Below, piece by piece: positions 1-8,451 of a DNA stretch of 8,451 bases. Location: the IMG/VR virus record IMGVR_UViG_2802429216_000005, positions 1-8,451 of that record. One strand, given 5' to 3'. The notes beneath the pieces were generated by a model, which had not been told where the DNA came from, did no database searches, and saw only the letters and a list, made by a program, of their open reading frames with translations. This DNA is from a virus. Lineage: Duplodnaviria > Heunggongvirae > Uroviricota > Caudoviricetes. The first letter of the stretch is position 1. Every line of letters starts with the position of its first letter. A program made the translations under genes and the position numbers.

Positions 1-1433
1 TTATCGGCGTCAGGCTGGCTGATATTGGCTGCCTGCATAATTTTGTTTACTTCGTCAGCGGTAACTTTTACCGGCTCCGGTTGTGCGATCGTGTCAGATG
101 CACCAGTATTTTGTTGTGAACCTGAGTATGTACCGTTTTTGCGGGCAAAATATTCTTCTTTCGTGATTTCAGTAGCCCCTGCAGCCAGCGCCTTATTCAG
201 ACCAGAAAGTTTGTTTGCACGACCGTATTTTTCGCCATCCTTGTCGGTGAAGAGGAAGTAGAACGGCCCCTCACGCTCTACAGATGATTCGACTTCCACT
301 TTGCATTCGGTTTTTTCGTTGTCGTGAATTGCCGTTTCCACTGCGTCAGTTTCTGGTACTGGCGACGAGAGAGTATTAGCTGTGCCCTGATTTGTTCCTT
401 CGTCATCTTCAAACACGCCCTTTGTAGTCAGGTATTCAGTGATGTATTTGTTCAGTGCCACGGGATCTTTGTGAATGTCGATCGGGCGTTCACGGACAAG
501 GCCAAAAATAGTCTGGCGGCTGTAGCGAAGCGCATCAGGTTGTTTGCGCATTGATGCGGAGATGCGCTTCCAGTCTTCGCGATCTCTGGCGATAACTTCA
601 TTTTTAGCCCAGCGAAGGATGCTGCCGTCAATGTTTCCGGCATCCGCATCACCAGGCCAGAGATAGTAGGCCAGCTCCCTGTCCAGGGTTTTCCATGTCT
701 GCTTGTATTCGCGATGAATGGCGGCAGTTACAGGAGGGATTTTTTCTGCTGGGTTTTCAGTGTGCTGTCGGTTGGCTTTGGCGCGGGCAAGATCAACAAC
801 AGACGTGTATTTTCCAGTCTCTTTGCGCTCTGCGTCCTGCCGTTTTTTCCAGTTACGTAATTCAACCTGAATTTCGGGCCATTTGGTACCCGGCTTACAT
901 TTGTGTTTAACCCATCCGATAGCGAACAGTTTGCGTTCCGGATACATAGCGTTAATTTCAGGCGTTTTCATCAGTGCTTCAACGATATGCCCGTCAAAGG
1001 TAGCCACGTCTTCTTGCAGTAATTCCTGCGCGTCAATCGCCATATCAACGGTGATGTTTTCACATGTACCGAACTTAACCAGGACCGCGTTCTGTACTTC
1101 AAGGGACAGCTTGTCAAAATTGACGTTAATAGGATCGGATTCTGGTTCGACCGGAATAAAGGAAGCGGATTCCTCATCCCAGTGGTTTTCCTGCATATAT
1201 TCGGTATCCCAGGAGTCGATAGCAGGGCGGGGCATGCCGGGTTTATCTTCGCAGACAAGAAATTTATAAGCGCAGTCCTGAGCAGCAGGATATTGCTCCA
1301 GGAATTGCCAGGTAAATTTGGCACGGGCGCGGCGTTCATCACCGGCTTCAATGGCAGTGGCTACAGCAACTGCGCCCTCTTCTTTTATTGCCTGTTCGTC
1401 CGGAATGGCGGCGCAAATAAAGACTTTACTCAT
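1..1433 (-). CDS. Large acidic hypothetical protein, distal gene of the leftward early operon; N-terminal 477+ aa present, C-terminus beyond window start
   Basis: Minus-strand frame is open from ATG (1433-1431) to position 1; no in-frame stop, which is why the ORF track omits it. GAGG about 10 nt upstream (plus-strand cctc 1444-1447). N-terminus MSKVFICAAIPDEQAIKEEGAVAVATAIEAGDERRARAKFTWQFLEQYPAAQDCAYKF. All listed ORFs overlapping it lie in other frames and look like shadows. No catalytic motif recognised by eye. Confidence 0.75.
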   Translation of the reverse strand, partial: MSKVFICAAIPDEQAIKEEGAVAVATAIEAGDERRARAKFTWQFLEQYPAAQDCAYKFLVCEDKPGMPRPAIDSWDTEYMQENHWDEESASFIPVEPESDPINVNFDKLSLEVQNAVLVKFGTCENITVDMAIDAQELLQEDVATFDGHIVEALMKTPEINAMYPERKLFAIGWVKHKCKPGTKWPEIQVELRNWKKRQDAERKETGKYTSVVDLARAKANRQHTENPAEKIPPVTAAIHREYKQTWKTLDRELAYYLWPGDADAGNIDGSILRWAKNEVIARDREDWKRISASMRKQPDALRYSRQTIFGLVRERPIDIHKDPVALNKYITEYLTTKGVFEDDEGTNQGTANTLSSPVPETDAVETAIHDNEKTECKVEVESSVEREGPFYFLFTDKDGEKYGRANKLSGLNKALAAGATEITKEEYFARKNGTYSGSQQNTGASDTIAQPEPVKVTADEVNKIMQAANISQPDAD

Positions 1434-1526
1434 TTTGTTTTAACCTCATTACAGATTTAAGGGTGAACAAATCCCTGCCATTGCTGGCATATAAAAATGA
1501 AACCGGATATTAATTACGGTGCTGTT

Positions 1527-1718
1527 TTAAAGTCCTGCCGGTATTTCGTTATTATTAGTGTGAGTAGTTTTATCTACCGGATAACAGTTACCGGGAATTT
1601 TTTGTTCTGCTGCTGCAGCCATGCATTCTTTCATTGAACCGTATAAGCCAGTCACCAGCTCAAGAGATTCGCCGGAAACAAGATAAACTGTCAGAACGAG
1701 TGCAAATGTTGTATTCAT
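1527..1718 (-). CDS. Small protein (63 aa) with N-terminal hydrophobic segment, probably membrane or secreted
   Basis: ORF track; start ATG overlaps the stop of the upstream gene (ATGA, 1715-1718); AAGGA about 8 nt upstream; N-terminus MNTTFALVLTVYLVSG is hydrophobic; two Cys residues. Confidence 0.55.
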   Translation of the reverse strand: MNTTFALVLTVYLVSGESLELVTGLYGSMKECMAAAAEQKIPGNCYPVDKTTHTNNNEIPAGL

Positions 1719-1903
1719 TGTTTATATCCTTTTTGCAGCAGGTCCAGACGAGCCAGCATTGAAGGAATGCATACTTCATTTAACAGGTCCTGCTCGAGTT
1801 TTCTCTGCTTAATGGCGTCTTCAATAAATGTTTTGTCTCCAGTGATAACGCCAATTTCGAAACGAAGTTCAGACGTGATGGCATTACATGATAACTTTTC
1901 CAT
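1715..1903 (-). CDS. Small hypothetical protein (62 aa); alternative GTG start at 2008 would give 97 aa
   Basis: In-frame ATG at 1903-1901 is preceded by GAGGA with about 7-nt spacing, whereas the GTG at 2008 used by the ORF track has no obvious SD. Stop overlaps the next start (ATGA), indicating translational coupling. Confidence 0.5.
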   Translation of the reverse strand: MEKLSCNAITSELRFEIGVITGDKTFIEDAIKQRKLEQDLLNEVCIPSMLARLDLLQKGYKQ

Positions 1904-2406
1904 TATCGCGTCCTCAACAATGAATTTTGTGATGCGGTGCCTGGTGCCTCCAGGTGACGTTAACCAGTTAACAATTAACGCCGGATACAGAGAATCCACC
2001 CATAACACTGTTTTTGGTTTTAACTGTTCCGCGTGCGCTGAGCCGCATTCACCGCATCACAAAATTCACTTTTAAAAAAGGGCGGCAGAGCAGTCACGGA
2101 GTAAAACTGATACCGCCAAATGTCACCAGAATATTGATAACAGAGGGCGTTGTAGCGGGGTTGTCACTTAAGCGTATGGTCAACCTGACAACCCGGTGTC
2201 CTCAACGGGGAAAGGCGTCCCTCCCACCCCCGCCATACTTACCGCCGCGCCATTTCGCGGGTCGCCACAACCGGAAGCGCACGGTCGAATTAAATTTAAC
2301 GACACCGTGCAGTGAGACGAACTTCGCCGTGCGCTTTCGTGTTGTGTGCCTGCTTTTAACCACGTCAGGCGAGGTGGTTTCCGTCATTCCCCAACGACAG
2401 GAAATC

Positions 2407-2414
2407 TGTATAAT
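2407..2414 (+). promoter_or_regulatory. Candidate -10 element (TGTATAAT) for the plus-strand antisense cassette
   Basis: Perfect TATAAT at 2409-2414 with TG immediately 5'; followed by AAGGA SD (2435-2439) and ATG 2446. No convincing -35 hexamer found (best ATTCCC/GTCATT), so this is weak. Confidence 0.3.
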
Positions 2415-2480
2415 CTGGGTATCCCCAACGATCCAAGGAAATCATATGACAGAGCAAAGAGCACAAGCAGGTGATGGTGT

Positions 2481-2687
2481 ATGGACCGGGATGATATTCT
2501 TGACAGAATTTTTTATGGCTATTTTCTTGAGCAACTGTTTTCTGTAGCGACTGGTCGTCTCGATAAACTTCTCTCAGTAGTGAGTATTATCCTCGGTTCA
2601 TCTGTCATTGGCGGATTCATTCCGGAAATTTCTGGCGTTTTTATTGTTGTGATCGCAACCGTCCAAACGATTTATGGATTCGGATAA
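2481..2687 (+). CDS. Small membrane protein (68 aa), antisense to the leftward operon, at the sieB-like position
   Basis: ORF track; AGGTGA SD (2469-2474) 6 nt before ATG 2481; hydrophobic stretch LSVVSIILGSSVIGGFIPEISGVFIVVIATV consistent with a TM helix; AT-rich. Same frame as the next ORF, separated by a single TAA (2685-2687). Confidence 0.5.
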   Translation: MDRDDILDRIFYGYFLEQLFSVATGRLDKLLSVVSIILGSSVIGGFIPEISGVFIVVIATVQTIYGFG

Positions 2688-2702
2688 AAGTCAGGTAATA
2701 CC

Positions 2703-2927
2703 ATGAGAAAATCCGCAGAATATTTGCAGCTTTTTGATGATGCAGAAAAATATTCTGATTCGGAATTGAAAATTCAGTTAAAAACTCTGGAAAAAACAGA
2801 TAATCATATTTGGTCATCACTTAAAGATATTGCGATCTTAAAAACACAGATCAAAATAGGCGTCTCCATCGAACAACAAGAGAAGTTGCCCACAAAATCC
2901 AAATTGATGCGATTTCTTTGTGGTTAG
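2703..2927 (+). CDS. Small hydrophilic protein (74 aa), second ORF of the antisense cassette
   Basis: ORF track; very AT-rich; weak SD AGGT (2692-2695); same frame as 2481-2687. Could be the C-terminal part of a disrupted larger gene. Confidence 0.45.
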   Translation: MRKSAEYLQLFDDAEKYSDSELKIQLKTLEKTDNHIWSSLKDIAILKTQIKIGVSIEQQEKLPTKSKLMRFLCG

Positions 2928-3016
2928 GAATATCCAGATTGTTAAAGAGCATGCCGGAGGTTTATCCGTGTCCGGCGCACGCACTTCATCTGCGGAGAAC
3001 TACTTGAGCTCATTGG

Positions 3017-3232
3017 TCAGTAGTTTTCAATCACTCGCGAAACGTTTAATGCCGCGCTTTTTGCCAGAGTGGTAATATCCTGCTCCGCTGACACCAGTTC
3101 TTTAGAGAGGCGCTCTTTGTAGTCAGCGGCCTGCTTCAGGTCATTAATGGCGCGTATCTTTCCGCACATCCATTCGTAAATTTCATCCTCGGTATAGTCT
3201 GGTGCGATGATGACGGGTTCTCGTTTCTGCAT
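3017..3232 (-). CDS. Hypothetical early protein (71 aa)
   Basis: ORF track; GAGGA SD 6 nt upstream of ATG (3232-3230); same orientation as the repressor-proximal leftward operon. Confidence 0.65.
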   Translation of the reverse strand: MQKREPVIIAPDYTEDEIYEWMCGKIRAINDLKQAADYKERLSKELVSAEQDITTLAKSAALNVSRVIENY

Positions 3233-3261
3233 ACTGATTCCTCGAGGTGCCGCTTCGCTTA

Positions 3262-3390
3262 TCAGTCGTTAGATTTTGCCGAACTGGAAAGCGCCTGTTT
3301 AAACTCACTGAAGCTGAGAGCTTCTTCGCCTTCGGCAAGGCCTTCGAAGTATTCTTCGTAAGCCTTTTCCATGATTGCGTCGAAATCCAT
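3262..3390 (-). CDS. Tiny acidic protein (42 aa), below the ORF-track length cut-off
   Basis: Manual translation of the minus strand: MDFDAIMEKAYEEYFEGLAEGEEALSFSEFKQALSSSAKSND. Its ATG (3390-3388) sits 1 nt after the TGA of the upstream gene (TGAtATG), with GGTGAG just upstream. Size recalls Rac ydaG (44 aa, from memory), unverified. Confidence 0.4.
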   Translation of the reverse strand: MDFDAIMEKAYEEYFEGLAEGEEALSFSEFKQALSSSAKSND

Positions 3391-3391
3391 A

Positions 3392-3547
3392 TCACTCACC
3401 TGAATTTCTTTCCAGCCAGCGACGCGCGCCAGCTTCGGTTTTAAACGTTTTGCTTCTGGTATACGTCATCGCGGTGAACGTGCCGTCCTGGTTGGGAAAC
3501 ACGCCGTACACCAGAGATTCGTTGTTGCCAAGATCGATAGTATCCAT
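3392..3547 (-). CDS. Small protein (51 aa), first gene of the leftward operon; alternative upstream ATG at 3628 would give 78 aa
   Basis: Internal ATG at 3547-3545 has GAGG with 5-nt spacer, better than the context of the ATG at 3628. Protein MDTIDLGNNESLVYGVFPNQDGTFTAMTYTRSKTFKTEAGARRWLERNSGE. Size and position recall Rac ydaF (51 aa, from memory), unverified. Confidence 0.55.
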   Translation of the reverse strand: MDTIDLGNNESLVYGVFPNQDGTFTAMTYTRSKTFKTEAGARRWLERNSGE

Positions 3548-3725
3548 GCTGACCTCATTTCCCCTTAACGCCGGGGTAGCGGAACAAAAACCTGCTGCAT
3601 AGTTATTAAAGTTGAACCCTGCCGTCATGTTCTTACGCCTCGGGCTGGCTACTTAACCCCTGACCACTGCCGGGTAACTCTAGGTATTGCCCTGCGTTCT
3701 GTGGGGCGGGGTGGGTTGGCATGTA

Positions 3726-3775
3726 TATAATGTACTTTATGTTCAGTGTTGTAAAGTACTTTGAGTACATTTTAT
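3726..3775. promoter_or_regulatory. Putative leftward early promoter/operator (OL/pL-like) region
   Basis: Lies about 150 bp upstream of the first leftward gene. Contains TGTACTttatGTTC (3731-3744), palindrome AAAGTACTTT (3753-3762) and AGTACA (3764-3769), the same motif family as in the repressor/cro intergenic region. On the minus strand TTTACA followed by CATTAT at 17-bp spacing is a plausible -35/-10. Confidence 0.35.
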
Positions 3776-3845
3776 GTGTAAAAAAATGAGATGGGAAAAA
3801 GTGAAGCACAAACCCGGAGGGGGACGCTACCGGATTTATGCTGGT

Positions 3846-4265
3846 TTAAGAGGCTTTTTGTTTTTTCTTTCGTGCTAACTCTTCGTAAATTGCATTGTAC
3901 TTTTGTTTTTTCTCCTCAAGAGTTTTTAAAAGTTCATCTGTCTCACTGTCAGGGAGCTCGTCCAGAAGATCAATGATGATTTTTTGTCTTGGATTTAACT
4001 CCTGATAGAAACGTACCTGTCCACTTTCTTCTGTATCCTCTCCCAAAAGATAGGTTGGTGTTGTTCCAATGAGTGTTGCTAATTCCCTTAATTTCTCTCG
4101 GCGAGGAATTGTTTCGCCATTAAACCATTTGCTAACCGCTTTTGGTGTTAATTTCATTCGACGGGCAATTTCTGCCTGCCTTCCATGTTGTTCATAACCA
4201 GCGTTTTCACAGGCTAGCGCAAGCCTACTGGCGAACTCTTTACGCGCTTTATCTTCATGAACCAT
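3846..4265 (-). CDS. Prophage repressor, XRE/cI-type HTH N-terminal domain, no S24 peptidase domain evident (RacR-like)
   Basis: ORF track, 139 aa; HTH segment MKLTPKAVSKWFNGETIPRREKLRELATLIGTTPTYLLG; C-terminal half is charged and coiled-coil-like (ELLKTLEEKKQKYNAIYEELARKKKQKAS). Divergent from the Cro-like gene across an 80-bp intergenic region with repeated operator-like motifs. Confidence 0.85.
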   Translation of the reverse strand: MVHEDKARKEFASRLALACENAGYEQHGRQAEIARRMKLTPKAVSKWFNGETIPRREKLRELATLIGTTPTYLLGEDTEESGQVRFYQELNPRQKIIIDLLDELPDSETDELLKTLEEKKQKYNAIYEELARKKKQKAS

Positions 4266-4344
4266 AAGTTCAATGATATTCGCTCTTGAATGTACTGTCA
4301 GTTCTGTTATAGCATGTACTCAAAGTTCACATTGTGAGGGTGAT
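4266..4344. promoter_or_regulatory. Divergent promoter/operator region (OR-like) between repressor and cro-like gene
   Basis: Direct repeat TGTACTnnnAGTTC at 4291-4304 and 4315-4328 (24-bp spacing); palindrome CACAtTGTG at 4328-4336. Candidate rightward promoter TTGAAT (4286-4291), 16 bp, TATAGC (4308-4313). SD GAGGGTGA (4336-4343) before ATG 4345. Confidence 0.5.
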
Positions 4345-4599
4345 ATGAACCAGAAAACACTTGAAGATGTAATCAAAACTGTTCGCGTTTCTGTTGTGGC
4401 CGACGTTTGTGGTGTCAGCCAAAGAGCAATCTACAAATGGATGGATAACGGAAAATTGCCTCGCACTGAATATACCGGCGAAACAAATTATGCTGAAAAA
4501 ATCGCTCATGCATCAAACGGATTATTTTCTGCCGATGCAATTTTAACTATTGGCAGAAATAAAACTACTACGAAAAAGCTGTTGGGAGTTGATTCATGA
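4345..4599 (+). CDS. Cro-like / YdaS-like HTH DNA-binding protein (84 aa from ATG 4345; ORF track start 4273 rejected)
   Basis: HTH VADVCGVSQRAIYKWMDNGKLP; strong SD GAGGGTGA before ATG 4345, whereas the ATG at 4273 lies inside the operator region. Stop overlaps the next gene start (ATGA at 4596-4599). Confidence 0.75.
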   Translation: MNQKTLEDVIKTVRVSVVADVCGVSQRAIYKWMDNGKLPRTEYTGETNYAEKIAHASNGLFSADAILTIGRNKTTTKKLLGVDS

Positions 4600-5021
4600 A
4601 AATCAAGCATGAGCACATCCGCATGGCGATGAATGCCTGGTCGCATCCGGACGGCGAAAAAGTTCCGGCAGCTGAAATAACCCGGGCTTATTTTGAACTG
4701 GGTATGACGTTTCCGGAACTGTACGACGATTCACACCCAGAAGCCCTGGCTCGCAATACTCAGAAGATTTTCCGCTGGGTGGAGAAAGACACCCCTGATG
4801 CGGTTAAAAAAATTCAGGCGTTGTTACCAGCGATCGAAAAAGCAATGCCACCTCTGCTGGTGGCCCGAATGCGCAGCCACAGTTCAACCTGGTTTCGGGA
4901 GCTGGTGGAGACGCGGGAACGACTGGTGAGAGACGCTGATGATTTTGTCGCAGTGGCGATCGCTGGTTTCAATCAGATGAATCGTGGTGGTCCGGCGGGA
5001 AATGCCGTGGTGATGCACTAA
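4596..5021 (+). CDS. ydaT: YdaT-like protein (141 aa), the reported functional CII analogue of Rac/CP-933P-type prophages
   Basis: ORF track; position immediately after the cro-like gene with coupled ATGA start; size 141 aa versus 140 aa for Rac YdaT; N-terminus MKIKHEHI matches my recollection of YdaT. Assignment is from memory and synteny, not a search. Confidence 0.7.
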   Translation: MKIKHEHIRMAMNAWSHPDGEKVPAAEITRAYFELGMTFPELYDDSHPEALARNTQKIFRWVEKDTPDAVKKIQALLPAIEKAMPPLLVARMRSHSSTWFRELVETRERLVRDADDFVAVAIAGFNQMNRGGPAGNAVVMH

Positions 5022-5044
5022 AAGCACGGTGTTCGGAGTTTTTT

Positions 5045-5992
5045 ATGAGCAGCAAGCTTCATGGTCTTGTCTGGGAAGGGTGTGCCTTCACCGGCATGAT
5101 CTTATCCAGGGTGGCAGTAATGGCTCGCCTTGCAGATTACAGCAATGACGAAGGTGTGTCATGGCCTGCAGTGGAGACCATTCGTCGTCAGATTGGGGCA
5201 AAGAGTGAATCAACGGTTAAAGCGGCGATAGCGGAACTGGAAAAGAACGGCTGGCTGACGAAGGAGGAACGTAAGGTCGGTGGGCGTAATGAAAGCAATA
5301 TCTACCGTCTTAATGTGGAAAAACTCGAAGCAGCAGCAGCGGCGGCGCGTGAGGCATATAAACCGAAAAGAAAAATTAACCCGGTAAAAAATGACCCGTC
5401 AAATATTGACCCCTCAACGGTTGACCCCTCAAATTTTGATGGATCAACCGTTGATAAAAAACATTCGGTTAGGGGGACGATGGTTGGCCCCGATCCGTCA
5501 GTATTAAAACCTGATCCGCCAGATAAAAGATCTTCTTGTCCGGACGCTTCGCAACCGGACCCGCAGATGGCTGAACAGGATTTTTTAACCCGACACCCTG
5601 ACGCGGTTGTGTTCAGTGCGAAAAAACGCCAGTGGGGCAGCCAGGAAGATTTAGCGTGTGCGCAGTGGATCTGGGGGCGAATCGTGAGTCTTTACGAGCA
5701 GGCTGCCAGCGATGATGGCGAAATCATGCGACCGAAAGAACCAAACTGGACTGCATGGGCCAATGATGTGCGCACAATGCGGATGCTGGATGGCAGAACT
5801 CACAGACAAATTTGCGAAATGTTTGGTCGGGTACAGCGGGATCCATTCTGGGTAAAAAACATCATGAGTCCGGCAAAACTCCGGGAAAAATGGGATGAGC
5901 TGGTTATTCGTCTGGGGCGTTCGCCTGTACAGCGTTGCGTGAATCACATTTCTGAACCGGATACCGAAATTCCGCCGGGGTTCAGGGGGTAA
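5045..5992 (+). CDS. Replication initiator, lambda O-like: N-terminal winged-helix DNA-binding domain, central iteron-encoded repeat linker, C-terminal domain of unknown fold
   Basis: ORF track, 315 aa; GGAG SD 7 nt upstream; N-terminal region with HTH-like segment (VSWPAVETIRRQIGAKSESTVKAAIAELEKNGWL); central 5-aa tandem repeat NDPSN-IDPST-VDPSN-FDGST-VDKKH encoded by 15-bp iterons; position after cro and the CII-like gene. Confidence 0.8.
   Translation: MSSKLHGLVWEGCAFTGMILSRVAVMARLADYSNDEGVSWPAVETIRRQIGAKSESTVKAAIAELEKNGWLTKEERKVGGRNESNIYRLNVEKLEAAAAAAREAYKPKRKINPVKNDPSNIDPSTVDPSNFDGSTVDKKHSVRGTMVGPDPSVLKPDPPDKRSSCPDASQPDPQMAEQDFLTRHPDAVVFSAKKRQWGSQEDLACAQWIWGRIVSLYEQAASDDGEIMRPKEPNWTAWANDVRTMRMLDGRTHRQICEMFGRVQRDPFWVKNIMSPAKLREKWDELVIRLGRSPVQRCVNHISEPDTEIPPGFRG
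5391..5465. repeat. Five tandem 15-bp iterons, candidate phage replication origin inside the initiator gene
   Basis: aTGACCCgTCAA (5391), TTGACCCCTCAA (5406), TTGACCCCTCAA (5421), TTGATGGATCAA (5436), TTGATAAAAAAC (5451), at exact 15-bp spacing; each unit has dyad ends TTGA....TCAA. Confidence 0.6.
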
Positions 5993-6034
5993 GTGTTGAT
6001 TTGAGGTCATGAAGTTATTTTCTCAGGAGAGTTT

Positions 6035-6436
6035 ATGGGGGCTATTTATACCGAAGAACAGCGGGAAAGATTACAGCGTCACATCGTTGACCTTGTACGT
6101 AAAAACGGGCGTATGAAAATGCCACAACTGGCATCGGCAACATATGCTTCACATGATTCCATTCGCCGGTACCTGAAGATGCTGGTGAGCCAGGGCGAAG
6201 TGTATGTTGTCAGCGGAAAAGGGGTATTCCTTTCAGAGAGAGTTTACCGTGAATGGCTGGCAAGTTCGGCAAAAAAATCAAGGGTTATCCGCAAACCAGC
6301 ACAAAAACAGGGTAAGGCCGGAGTACAACCCTACGACCGGCACCAGAACGTAATTTGCCGGGAATGTCGTAACAGCGAATCAATGCAGCGGGTACTGGCT
6401 TTTTACCGGGGTGGATTTCAGGAGCTCGTATCGTGA
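6035..6436 (+). CDS. Putative winged-helix DNA-binding protein (133 aa)
   Basis: ORF track; AGGAGA SD; basic middle region (KKSRVIRKPAQKQGKAG) and CxxC near C-terminus (CRECRN); stop overlaps the next start (GTGA). Confidence 0.7.
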   Translation: MGAIYTEEQRERLQRHIVDLVRKNGRMKMPQLASATYASHDSIRRYLKMLVSQGEVYVVSGKGVFLSERVYREWLASSAKKSRVIRKPAQKQGKAGVQPYDRHQNVICRECRNSESMQRVLAFYRGGFQELVS

Positions 6437-6741
6437 AAAAGTGGGTGCGTGCCGAGATACTGATTCTACGGCAGTGTGCGGGAACAATGACGGTGGAATG
6501 TATCGGGATGCTTATTGGTCGTAGTGAGGCTGCGGTCAGAACGAAAGCGCGGGAACTGGGTATTAGTATGATGTTACGGGGTGATTATCACCAGTCAGCA
6601 AAATATCCGCAGAGTGATATTGAGCTGGCGCGACAGCTGCATCAGCTTGGCGTGTCCAGGAGAGAAATCGCCAGAAAATTTGGAATGCCGCTGCGCACAG
6701 TGAATAACTACGTTTATTTCGACAGGAGGGTGTCTGCGTGA
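6433..6741 (+). CDS. HTH-containing hypothetical protein (102 aa), GTG start
   Basis: ORF track; two HTH-like segments (GRSEAAVRTKARELGI; LGVSRREIARKFGMPLRTVNNYV); GTGA overlap with the previous stop. Confidence 0.7.
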   Translation: MKKWVRAEILILRQCAGTMTVECIGMLIGRSEAAVRTKARELGISMMLRGDYHQSAKYPQSDIELARQLHQLGVSRREIARKFGMPLRTVNNYVYFDRRVSA

Positions 6742-6971
6742 AAATCCTGTATCAGGATTACGGCCCGGTGGGACAGGTGGTTATCAGCAGTACTGTAATG
6801 GAGTTCCGGAAGCATAACCGTGTGGTGGATGCAGTACTGTTAGCCTGTCCGGGGATATCGGCGAGCCGTGCAGGTGTGTTTTTTATGAAGACGAAGTTAT
6901 ATGGCAGTACAGCGTGGATAAAGAAGGCGTACCGGGTAGCGTTACAGGAGGTAAACAGTGAGCGAAATTAA
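6738..6971 (+). CDS. Small hypothetical protein (77 aa), GTG start
   Basis: ORF track; GAGGG upstream; start overlaps the previous stop (GTGA); 3' end overlaps the next gene by 14 nt. Confidence 0.6.
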   Translation: MKILYQDYGPVGQVVISSTVMEFRKHNRVVDAVLLACPGISASRAGVFFMKTKLYGSTAWIKKAYRVALQEVNSERN

Positions 6972-7419
6972 CTGTCAGGCACTGCGAGAGGCGGCAGAGA
7001 AAGCAACTAAAGGAAGCTACATCGTAGGGCATACGTCTGTTAACCAGCATGGCAATTTAACAGGAGTTTTTGTTTGTCAAAAATGGAAAGGAGAACCCGG
7101 TGGCGTGATTGCAGAATGTCATGTTAACTGCCTGGTTGAAACAGATGCTCAGGCTTACGCAAACGCTGAATTTATTGCTGCCTTTAATCCAAAGGTTGCG
7201 CTGGCGATACTGGATAAGCTGGAAGCTAAAGACAAGCGCATTGCAGAACTGGAGGCGAGGGAAATCCAGTTACCTGCTGGCTTCGACCTTCGATATGGAC
7301 ACCCGATAAATGCTGATGAGCGACATGTGATGATACCTAAAGAAAATGGCAACTGGATTCATCGGACTGACTTAGAGCACTCACTACGTGTTGCAGGGAT
7401 TCGTATTAAAGGAGACTAA
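6958..7419 (+). CDS. Ead/Ea22-like family protein (153 aa)
   Basis: ORF track; strong SD AGGAGG before GTG 6958; N-terminal ALREAAEKATKGSY and internal NAEFIAAFNPKVALAILDKLEAKDKRIAELE resemble, from memory, the conserved pattern of Ead/Ea22-like prophage proteins. Confidence 0.7.
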   Translation: MSEINCQALREAAEKATKGSYIVGHTSVNQHGNLTGVFVCQKWKGEPGGVIAECHVNCLVETDAQAYANAEFIAAFNPKVALAILDKLEAKDKRIAELEAREIQLPAGFDLRYGHPINADERHVMIPKENGNWIHRTDLEHSLRVAGIRIKGD

Positions 7420-7420
7420 C

Positions 7421-7777
7421 GTGGAAATAAAACCAGAAGATGAGTTAAGTAATATTGTTTTATTTCCGGTAAAAGAGGATGACCCACGTAATCAGGTTAA
7501 TTTTCTTTATGAGCCATCGGAAAGACCATATTGTCATCACGACTCTGTCCGGGTTGACGAAAAAGAGCGTCAGGTCCGCTGTAAAATCTGCGGTGCAGTT
7601 GTGGAGCCATTTGACTGGATGCTCTCTGTGGCGAAAAGAGAAACCAGACTGGCAGATGATGTAAGGATCTTGCGCCAGGAGGAACGGGAAAGGCGGAGAA
7701 ATATAGAAAAGCTAATTCAGATTGAGCGTAACGTGAAAGCGCGGATACGCAGGGCGACAAAATCCAGAACAGAATAA
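7421..7777 (+). CDS. Hypothetical protein with putative zinc-ribbon (118 aa from GTG 7421; ORF track ATG 7388 rejected)
   Basis: SD AAAGGAG (7408-7414) 6 nt before GTG 7421, immediately after the previous stop (7417-7419); the ATG at 7388 would overlap the upstream gene by 32 nt. Cys/His cluster YCHHD...CKICG; basic C-terminus. Confidence 0.65.
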   Translation: MEIKPEDELSNIVLFPVKEDDPRNQVNFLYEPSERPYCHHDSVRVDEKERQVRCKICGAVVEPFDWMLSVAKRETRLADDVRILRQEERERRRNIEKLIQIERNVKARIRRATKSRTE

Positions 7778-7825
7778 TTAAATTTAGCACTGTTAAAAAT
7801 TTAATCCTTAACCGGAGGTATATCA

Positions 7826-8020
7826 ATGTCAAACGCACAGAAAGTTATTAACGCTGAAAAATATAACGAGTGGGTGAAAAAGTTCTCAGAGCAGATTTTT
7901 AAAATTACTGGCGACGAGAATGCGGCAAAAAATGAATTAGAGCCGTGGACACCTGAAGGTGTCGCCCCAAATTATTGCTGGTGGATGTTGATCCAGTTGA
8001 TGCTGCAAATGAAGCGATGA
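7826..8020 (+). CDS. Small hypothetical protein (64 aa)
   Basis: ORF track; SD GGAGG (7813-7817) with about 8-nt spacer before ATG 7826. Confidence 0.6.
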   Translation: MSNAQKVINAEKYNEWVKKFSEQIFKITGDENAAKNELEPWTPEGVAPNYCWWMLIQLMLQMKR

Positions 8021-8046
8021 GTTATCACAACGATTAATGTCAGGAG

Positions 8047-8064
8047 GCCGCCCGAAAGGGCGGT
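8047..8064 (+). other. Stable GC hairpin with GAAA tetraloop between an SD-like AGGAGG and the next start codon
   Basis: GCCGCCC-GAAA-GGGCGGT: 6 G:C pairs plus a closing G:U (8047-8053 with 8058-8064). No U-tract follows on either strand, so not a classical intrinsic terminator. Confidence 0.45.
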
Positions 8065-8072
8065 AATGAAAA

Positions 8073-8451
8073 GTGACTGAATTAACCAAAGAGCAATTAA
8101 TCGAAGAAGCCAAATTAAAAATAGCGATTGCGAAATGCCACCCCAATTCAGGGATGGCACGGGTAGAGGGCGAGTTATTCAAAATTGCACTGGCATCGCT
8201 GGTAGCAGAACCGCTGGTGCCCGTCATGTATAAAGGAATGAAACTGTTAACAAAAGAGGGGCTTGAGCTTATTCGTGACGGTATTGCGGAGGCTACGGGA
8301 CTGGAAGCAATGTGTATGGCTGATGCTTTGCTGTCTGGGGGGGGGGGGGCGGGGGGGGGGGGGGGGGGGGGGTTGTTTTGGCAGGGGGCACCAGTGGAAG
8401 CTTGCAGCACAGAGTGGGAGAACGGAAGCGCGGGAAAACAATCACGCCCTG
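8073..8451 (+). CDS. Hypothetical protein, GTG start, 3' end beyond the window; reading frame passes through the homopolymer G tract, so the distal part is unreliable
   Basis: Frame open from GTG 8073 to the window end (VTELTKEQLIEEAKLKIAIAKCHPNSGMARVEGELFKIALASLVAEPLVPVMYKGMKLLTKEGLELIRDGIAEATGLEAMCMADALLS...). Absent from the ORF track because it has no stop in the window. The G-run translates to poly-Gly. Confidence 0.4.
   Translation, partial: MTELTKEQLIEEAKLKIAIAKCHPNSGMARVEGELFKIALASLVAEPLVPVMYKGMKLLTKEGLELIRDGIAEATGLEAMCMADALLSGGGGAGGGGGGGLFWQGAPVEACSTEWENGSAGKQSRP
8337..8372. repeat. Homopolymeric tract G13-C-G22
   Basis: Direct count: G x13 (8337-8349), C (8350), G x22 (8351-8372). 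Confidence 0.95.

Follow-up and report, generated by a model that had tools for sequence, protein, structure and literature searches.

A YdfE-family prophage gene whose RecE-like N-terminal region is followed, in full-length orthologues, by a predicted DEDDh exonuclease domain

RecE (exonuclease VIII of the Rac prophage) carries a long non-catalytic N-terminal region, which is described in a 2023 review as being 'of unknown function' and yet enhances linear-linear recombination (PMC11611040). Besides, genes for DnaQ-type nucleases have been described near int in the early-left operons of lambdoid phages, and 'RecE-2' proteins without a nuclease domain have been reported; neither of them was given a role or counted among the genes of the recombination modules (PMC12315714). 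Another related system is formed by T4 DexA (PDB 8KEL) and its E. coli homologue, the 'HREX' exonuclease EcD. The latter cleaves only DNA containing 5-hydroxymethylcytosine (5hmC) and protects the cells from T4, and K-12 strains are without DexA homologues (PMC12153337). Finally, the Qin prophage of E. coli K-12 contains ydfE (pseudogene b1577), for which a literature search on function found no study. This work deals with an open reading frame located at positions 1-1433 (minus strand) of 8,451 nucleotides of tailed-virus DNA (IMG/VR record IMGVR_UViG_2802429216_000005), which are called here the window. The frame lies in the same early-left operon slot as recE in Rac, and it encodes the front part of a YdfE-family protein that is related to the N-terminal region of RecE and whose full-length orthologues end in a predicted 3'->5' exonuclease domain.

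On the minus strand, the 477 codons that begin with the ATG at 1433-1431 are uninterrupted, and the frame leaves the window at its edge as the initial annotation had claimed; each of 20,000 shuffles of these bases contained a stop. The product is acidic, which had also been noted (isoelectric point 4.98; 82 Asp and Glu residues against 61 Lys and Arg), and the Glu/Asp/Thr-rich low-complexity stretch flagged earlier corresponds to residues 342-387, predicted to be disordered (predicted local distance difference test score, pLDDT, of about 29 in AlphaFold2). The description of the protein as 'unassigned', on the other hand, was incorrect, since RefSeq has an annotation for the gene and two of the newer Pfam families, YdfE_N and YdfE_C, cover it. 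Its DNA was found by megablast in 4440 of the 5426 complete E. coli genomes (around 82%), with up to seven copies per genome, and these copies are named 'exonuclease' or '3'-5' exonuclease'. In the best record, NZ_CM169999.1 (locus L001), which aligns to the whole window with 99.7% identity over positions 1-8218, the gene is 99.9% identical and its 2484 nucleotides encode 827 residues; a single residue differs between the window protein and this orthologue. The gene is also intact, with 823-826 residues, in the isolated phages Tritos, Evi and PhiR42_1, where it occupies the same operon slot.

Residues 1-256 of the window protein are 84% identical to K-12 YdfE (E-value 5e-164), and the orthology is supported both by sequence and by synteny, as the two copies are located downstream of dicF-dicB-ydfD. 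In K-12, IS2E cuts the gene after residue 256 and everything downstream has been lost, including the nuclease domain, whereas the window copy is open to the edge and reaches 827 residues in the records that are 99.9% identical. The reported lack of DexA homologues in K-12 strains (PMC12153337) is consistent with this truncation of ydfE. By these comparisons the frame comprises residues 1-477, that is the front 58%, of a prophage protein of about 827 residues belonging to the YdfE family, and it represents the intact form of the Qin pseudogene ydfE. The exonuclease gene is therefore already known and catalogued, and its front part is without assigned function. The initial annotation had considered that the full-length protein could match an established family of known function; family membership was found, and a known function was not.

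The catalytic domain was supposed to be C-terminal and beyond the window, and the near-identical records containing the full gene show it there. The sole Pfam domain above threshold in the full-length orthologue is PF16473 (Rv2179c-like DEDDh), at residues 643-815 (E-value 7e-68; 228 bits against a cut-off of 27). The DEDDh catalytic residues are intact (DLET at 647-650, FDNA at 749 and HNALDDA at 800), the alignment columns of DexA D7, D119, H186 and D191 are invariant, and the closest solved structure is that of T4 DexA (8KEL, E-value 2e-8). Judged from this conservation, the tail of the orthologues is an intact DEDDh (DnaQ-like, T4 DexA/EcD-type) 3'->5' exonuclease domain. The PD-(D/E)XK nuclease that had been looked for at this place (PF12684/DUF3799) is absent from the full-length orthologue.

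Nevertheless, the part of the protein in front of this domain is related to RecE. BLASTP aligned residues 279-626 with residues 294-591 of K-12 RecE (E-value 4e-65), and the alignment is almost identical across about 150 residues that include a CxxC...CxxC zinc ribbon. The first 278 residues gave no BLAST alignment with K-12 RecE, the head of which belongs to another Pfam family, PF06630 (Exonuc_VIII), with DUF3799 at RecE 615-850. When the profiles of both heads were compared by hhalign, YdfE_N matched the RecE head with 97.6% probability (E-value 3e-12, 185 columns), whereas an unrelated profile used as control scored 0.3%. There was no direct Pfam match to PF06630 in the window protein or in the full-length orthologue, and the profile-profile signal is to be read as remote homology and not as membership; on this basis the YdfE_N head (residues 1-204) appears to be a remote homologue of the RecE N-terminal domain. 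Because of the BLASTP match of residues 279-626 and the profile match of the head, the whole non-catalytic region can be matched module by module, at the level of sequence, to the N-terminal region of RecE. Both proteins have a long non-catalytic region made up of the remotely homologous head, a YdfE_C-like region, an acidic linker and a zinc-ribbon middle region. They differ in that the tail of RecE is a 5'->3' nuclease of the PD-(D/E)XK type and that of the YdfE-family orthologue a predicted 3'->5' DEDDh nuclease, in that RecE has a RecT partner gene and the YdfE-family gene has none, and in an additional mini-domain (residues 386-436) that K-12 RecE lacks.

The proposal of the initial annotation that the frame is the N-terminal region of a RecE-family exonuclease thus stands as far as the non-catalytic part is concerned, but the protein is not RecE. 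A canonical RecE, with a 5'->3' PD-(D/E)XK exonuclease and a downstream RecT, would agree with the operon slot, with the homology of the N-terminal and middle regions, with the name 'exonuclease VIII' that some databases give to orthologues, and with a partial match to the RecE equivalog of NCBIfam (NF007259). However, this match covers only model positions of around 440-603, and its 291 bits stay below the cut-off of 1269. PF16473 forms the tail of all the near-identical or orthologous full-length copies, none of which has a DUF3799 or PD-(D/E)XK domain, and the gene is followed by xis and int instead of recT. The DEDDh tail and the absence of recT rule out a canonical RecET module for the orthologues, and for the window gene this interpretation is hardly credible.

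The modules of the window part were delimited with an AlphaFold2 model of residues 1-477, built on an alignment of 50 sequences with 28-99% identity (mean pLDDT of 75; predicted template modelling score of 0.32). The model has confident blocks at residues 1-100 (alpha/beta), 101-204 (helical), 245-340 (helical) and 388-436 (beta-beta-alpha-beta-alpha), separated by segments that are predicted to be disordered (205-237, 344-385, which is the acidic stretch, and 439-457). No domains were detected in the 477 residues by a Pfam scan, in agreement with the earlier statement that no motif could be recognised, or in residues 1-640 of the full-length orthologue; the release scanned predates PF27430 (YdfE_N) and PF27432 (YdfE_C), and the hits to these two families come from precomputed annotations of relatives, namely P0001, which is 99% identical to the window protein, and all the 120 closest relatives. 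The YdfE_C region also matches phrog_607 at residues 240-382 and, by tblastn, RecE of Gifsy-1/2, HK225 and mEp237. The residues of the mini-domain are nearly invariant across the classes of tails described below; its profile gave nothing significant against PDB sequences, and no fold relative of known function was found for the YdfE_N head. Beyond the window, the RecE-like middle region continues with the zinc ribbon at 552-566 and is followed by the DEDDh domain at 641-827 of the full-length orthologue. The window part lacks a catalytic motif and consists of folded, constrained modules (YdfE_N, YdfE_C and the mini-domain) joined by disordered linkers.

Constraint was estimated from the ratio of nonsynonymous to synonymous divergence (dN/dS) against the three phage orthologues. 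Within the protein, constraint is strongest in the mini-domain (0.03), followed by the YdfE_N head (0.10), both being below the value of the DEDDh domain (0.17); YdfE_C shows 0.23, the linker at residues 205-244 shows 0.26-0.31, and the acidic linker is the least constrained segment (0.58-0.88), the window part as a whole giving 0.19. Constraint on the folded modules of the window part is thus no weaker than that on the catalytic domain, and the acidic stretch is a spacer that evolves nearly freely. These values also bear on two other interpretations. One of them takes the N-terminal part itself as an anti-host or anti-defence effector, for instance with the acidic linker as a DNA mimic, the nuclease being secondary. 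It would fit an acidic protein with an acidic low-complexity stretch for which a known fold was not found, and a K-12 remnant that keeps only the head. However, the acidic stretch is predicted to be disordered and has a dN/dS of 0.6-0.9, unlike structured DNA mimics, which led to the rejection of such a mimic role for the linker; the K-12 remnant is a truncation by IS2 annotated as a pseudogene, and PADLOC finds nothing on the N-terminal part. An effector of this kind is very improbable, and nothing directly supports the initial suggestion of an unrelated protein acting in anti-defence or host takeover.

The other interpretation is that the gene is a decaying, non-functional relic. Many of its carriers are defective prophages, the K-12 copy is a pseudogene and a neighbouring gene of the window has a nonsense mutation. 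Against this, all of the 477 codons are open, intact genes of 823-827 residues are present in thousands of genomes as well as in isolated viable phages, and the dN/dS of the window part and its folded modules (0.03-0.10) is low. The open frame and the purifying selection led to the rejection of a pseudogene reading of the window frame, and a relic can scarcely be believed. Apart from the ratios, the synonymous divergence (dS) varies around seven-fold across segments of this one gene (L001:9001-11484 compared with L007, L008 and L009); between the reference and Tritos it is 0.15 in the RecE-like middle region and 1.07 in the DEDDh domain. Since synonymous divergence differs so much between segments, it points to recombination breakpoints inside the gene, which would be located at module boundaries.

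The relatives of the window part are restricted in number and in taxonomic range. An exhaustive search of 1.84 billion representative proteins recovered only 190 clusters related to the 477 residues, and a profile search found 1369 related proteins, all of them from Enterobacterales. When 57 long representatives were clustered on the sequence that follows the shared region, four classes of tails were obtained. Class A (21 representatives; for instance L004:5001-7226) carries a putative Rad52-like annealase, recognised only by structure. Class B (12 representatives) has no Pfam or PDB relative, and the tail profiles of classes A and B gave nothing significant against PDB sequences. Class C (10 representatives) has the RecE-type PD-(D/E)XK nuclease, and class D (6 representatives) the DEDDh tail, with the orthologue of the window gene among them. 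Each of the two heads (YdfE_N and Exonuc_VIII) is found with each of the two nuclease tails (PD-(D/E)XK and DEDDh), and a rare variant of the family carries a ParB helix-turn-helix. The window gene and its class A and B sisters match the DnaQ-type nucleases and the 'RecE-2' proteins described for the early-left operons of lambdoid phages, which received no further analysis in that study (PMC12315714). As regards individual members, the class B relative P0126 (L005:5001-7109) has a conserved tail of about 190 residues with the motifs SGxTNIM and YRQQLTIAALQGLCANPA (phrog_26058). The protein P0231, which seemed to contain the mini-domain in another context, was discarded as it is no more than a fragment with out-of-frame sequence after it.

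Because this front part shuffles freely among nucleases of opposite polarity and an annealase, and given the precedent of RecE, the window part is interpreted as a non-enzymatic platform. When the early-left operon is derepressed, the platform would place the DNA-end enzyme that is fused to it at DNA ends or on a partner protein. In the family of the window gene this enzyme would be the 3'->5' exonuclease, and in its sisters the 5'->3' RecE nuclease or the Rad52-type annealase; the whole protein would trim 3' DNA ends in phage recombination, replication or DNA degradation. For YdfE-family identity, the platform and the trimming of 3' ends taken jointly, the probability is estimated at about 0.6. 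Two points weigh against it: there is no annealase in the early-left operon of this prophage, and no partner can be identified for the putative platform, which is suggested by comparison of sequences and by analogy with RecE. A more general proposal is that the YdfE/RecE N-terminal region (head, YdfE_C and the extremely conserved mini-domain of 50 residues) might be an adaptor that docks various DNA-end enzymes (5'->3' and 3'->5' nucleases, the Rad52-type annealase and a tail without assigned function) on one common target, for example a DNA end or a protein of host replication or repair, the DEDDh version aiming a DexA-like nuclease at incoming or broken DNA, perhaps in prophage defence. This proposal is speculative and rather improbable as a whole.

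The relationship of the tail with EcD supports the strongest rival of the platform interpretation, an anti-phage defence nuclease of the HREX/EcD type. Superinfecting phages, such as those with modified cytosines, would have their DNA degraded by the DEDDh tail, and this tail would be regulated or targeted by the N-terminal part. The tail is 36% identical to the EcD-type exonuclease (E-value 2e-35, 184 residues) and belongs to the same DEDDh family, with all the catalytic residues conserved. Besides, the gene sits among prophage genes of the exclusion type (dicB and the gene at the sieB position) and is kept in most E. coli genomes, often in defective prophages. However, both of the reported 5hmC-recognition residues are unconserved: the positions of DexA W152 and D169 are occupied by His and Lys in the YdfE-family tail and by Trp and Glu in EcD, the second position being less certain as the alignment is gapped in the D169 loop. 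The Asp that forms the tetramer (DexA D90; Ala78 in EcD), whose loss is said to make EcD modification-specific (PMC12153337), is kept as D722. PADLOC gives only a generic DEDDh match (E-value 4e-5), an early-left operon under control of a repressor should be silent in the lysogen, and the presence of the same head on an annealase or on the RecE nuclease would be left unexplained. A defence nuclease of this type is hence considered unlikely. DexA and EcD are stand-alone proteins of around 190-227 residues, whereas the YdfE-family protein has a RecE-like N-terminal extension of 640 residues, and EcD belongs to a P2-like prophage and not to a lambdoid early-left operon. Located by the published primers, EcD is a stand-alone gene of 193 residues (L010:3989-4570) in the early region of a P2-like prophage, adjoining a gene for a ParE-like toxin and a Dam methylase gene; its forward primer matches 26 of the 5426 E. 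coli genomes.

The same domain could also act as a 3'->5' exoribonuclease on RNA, such as the transcripts of the operon or host RNAs, and not on DNA. PF16473 is named after the exoribonuclease Rv2179c of M. tuberculosis, many copies are named '3'-5' exoribonuclease' and there is a weak match to oligoribonuclease. In contrast, the closest solved or characterised relatives, T4 DexA and EcD, are DNA exonucleases, and both the fusion partners of the sister proteins (RecE nuclease and Rad52-like annealase) and the RecE-like front part point to DNA transactions, so that an RNA substrate is quite improbable.

The gene was assigned to the distal end of the leftward early operon, and this position is borne out by the near-identical records, where it follows the kil-type dicB and directly precedes xis/int. 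The neighbourhood is that of a Qin-type dic operon, as indicated by the full-length Rfam match of DicF, and runs from a DicA-like repressor through ydfA/B/C-like genes, DicF, dicB and ydfD to the window gene, with which the early-left operon dicF-dicB-ydfD, repressed by DicA, ends. Downstream of the orthologue, DUF4224/excisionase and integrase genes are found in L001, Tritos and PhiR42_1, and in Evi a 252-nucleotide open reading frame followed by a mobile-element protein. The recT-like annealase that the initial annotation proposed to look for was not encountered: recT or another annealase is absent directly downstream in L001, Tritos, Evi and PhiR42_1. A scan of positions 1-4400 for promoters and terminators gave counts that were not above those of shuffles. 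The coordinates of the modules and neighbouring features are collected in Table 1.

Table 1. Location of the YdfE-family gene, its modules and the accompanying operon features (positions refer to the window unless a locus is given; aa, amino acids; nt, nucleotides).
Feature	Position	Strand	Remarks
Full-length orthologue gene	L001:9001-11484		827 aa; annotated '3'-5' exonuclease'
Variable linker and first residues of RecE-like middle region, residues 437-477	3..125	-	pLDDT 30-62
Mini-domain, beta-beta-alpha-beta-alpha (GPFY..GRANK..EI..EEY.ARK), residues 386-436	126..278	-	pLDDT 82-90
Acidic Glu/Asp/Thr linker, disordered spacer, residues 341-385	279..413	-	pLDDT 28-44; net charge -10; isoelectric point 4.05
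Helical YdfE_C module, residues 245-340	414..701	-	PF27432; pLDDT 86-92; common to RecE ~250-353
Disordered, poorly conserved linker, residues 205-244	702..821	-	pLDDT 41-54; low occupancy and conservation in the alignment
YdfE_N head, residues 1-204 (alpha/beta 1-100 and helical 101-204)	822..1433	-	84% identity to K-12 YdfE; PF27430; pLDDT 83-94
Shine-Dalgarno GAGG	1444..1447	-	~10 nt 5' of the ATG; read from the sequence
ydfD/DUF1482 homologue, upstream operon gene	1527..1718	-	annotation of 99.7%-identical L001 and K-12 Qin
dicB, cell-division inhibitor, upstream operon gene	1715..1903	-	annotation of L001 and K-12 Qin
DicF small RNA, same operon	2080..2131	-	full-length Rfam RF00039; 77 bits against a gathering score of 48; E-value 4e-16
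DicA-like repressor	3846-4265	-	Qin-type dic operon

Some other observations were made in the window. Between the ydfC-like gene and dicF, at the sieB position of Rac, there is a gene on the opposite strand (2481-2927, plus strand) which in the reference encodes 148 residues with a hydrophobic N-terminal half. In the window copy, codon 69 is an in-frame TAA instead of the Gln codon of the 99.7%-identical reference, and so in this strain the gene is probably a pseudogene. The plus strand has three Chi sites (GCTGGTGG) in the same orientation, at 4856-4863, 4901-4908 and 7977-7984, that is three in 8.45 kb against 0.2 expected, a number reached by none of 200 shuffles. An early-left operon without annealase or Gam together with Chi sites fits the lambdoid class described as 'no Rec module, Chi-rich' (PMC12315714), the sample being too small to conclude. 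With respect to the reference locus, around 34 bp at 3568-3601 of the window are missing from the latter, and positions 8219-8451 are fully divergent. A GGN/CCN-rich stretch at about 8290-8340 produces long poly-proline runs in the minus-strand frames.

Being one of the commonest prophage genes of E. coli, annotated in RefSeq and covered by Pfam, the window gene matters little as a finding in itself. Its interest lies in that the window part is the same kind of N-terminal region as that of RecE, to which full-length RecE owes its usefulness in direct cloning by linear-linear recombination and whose function has been unexplained since the 1990s. As this region is found joined to nucleases of both polarities as well as to a Rad52-type annealase, with a head and a mini-domain under constraint beyond that of the catalytic domain, it constitutes a defined and testable module. 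The relationship of the tail with EcD makes a defence role worth a simple test, for a gene that is present in around 80% of the E. coli genomes, and a general adaptor, if true, would explain how full-length RecE promotes linear-linear recombination.

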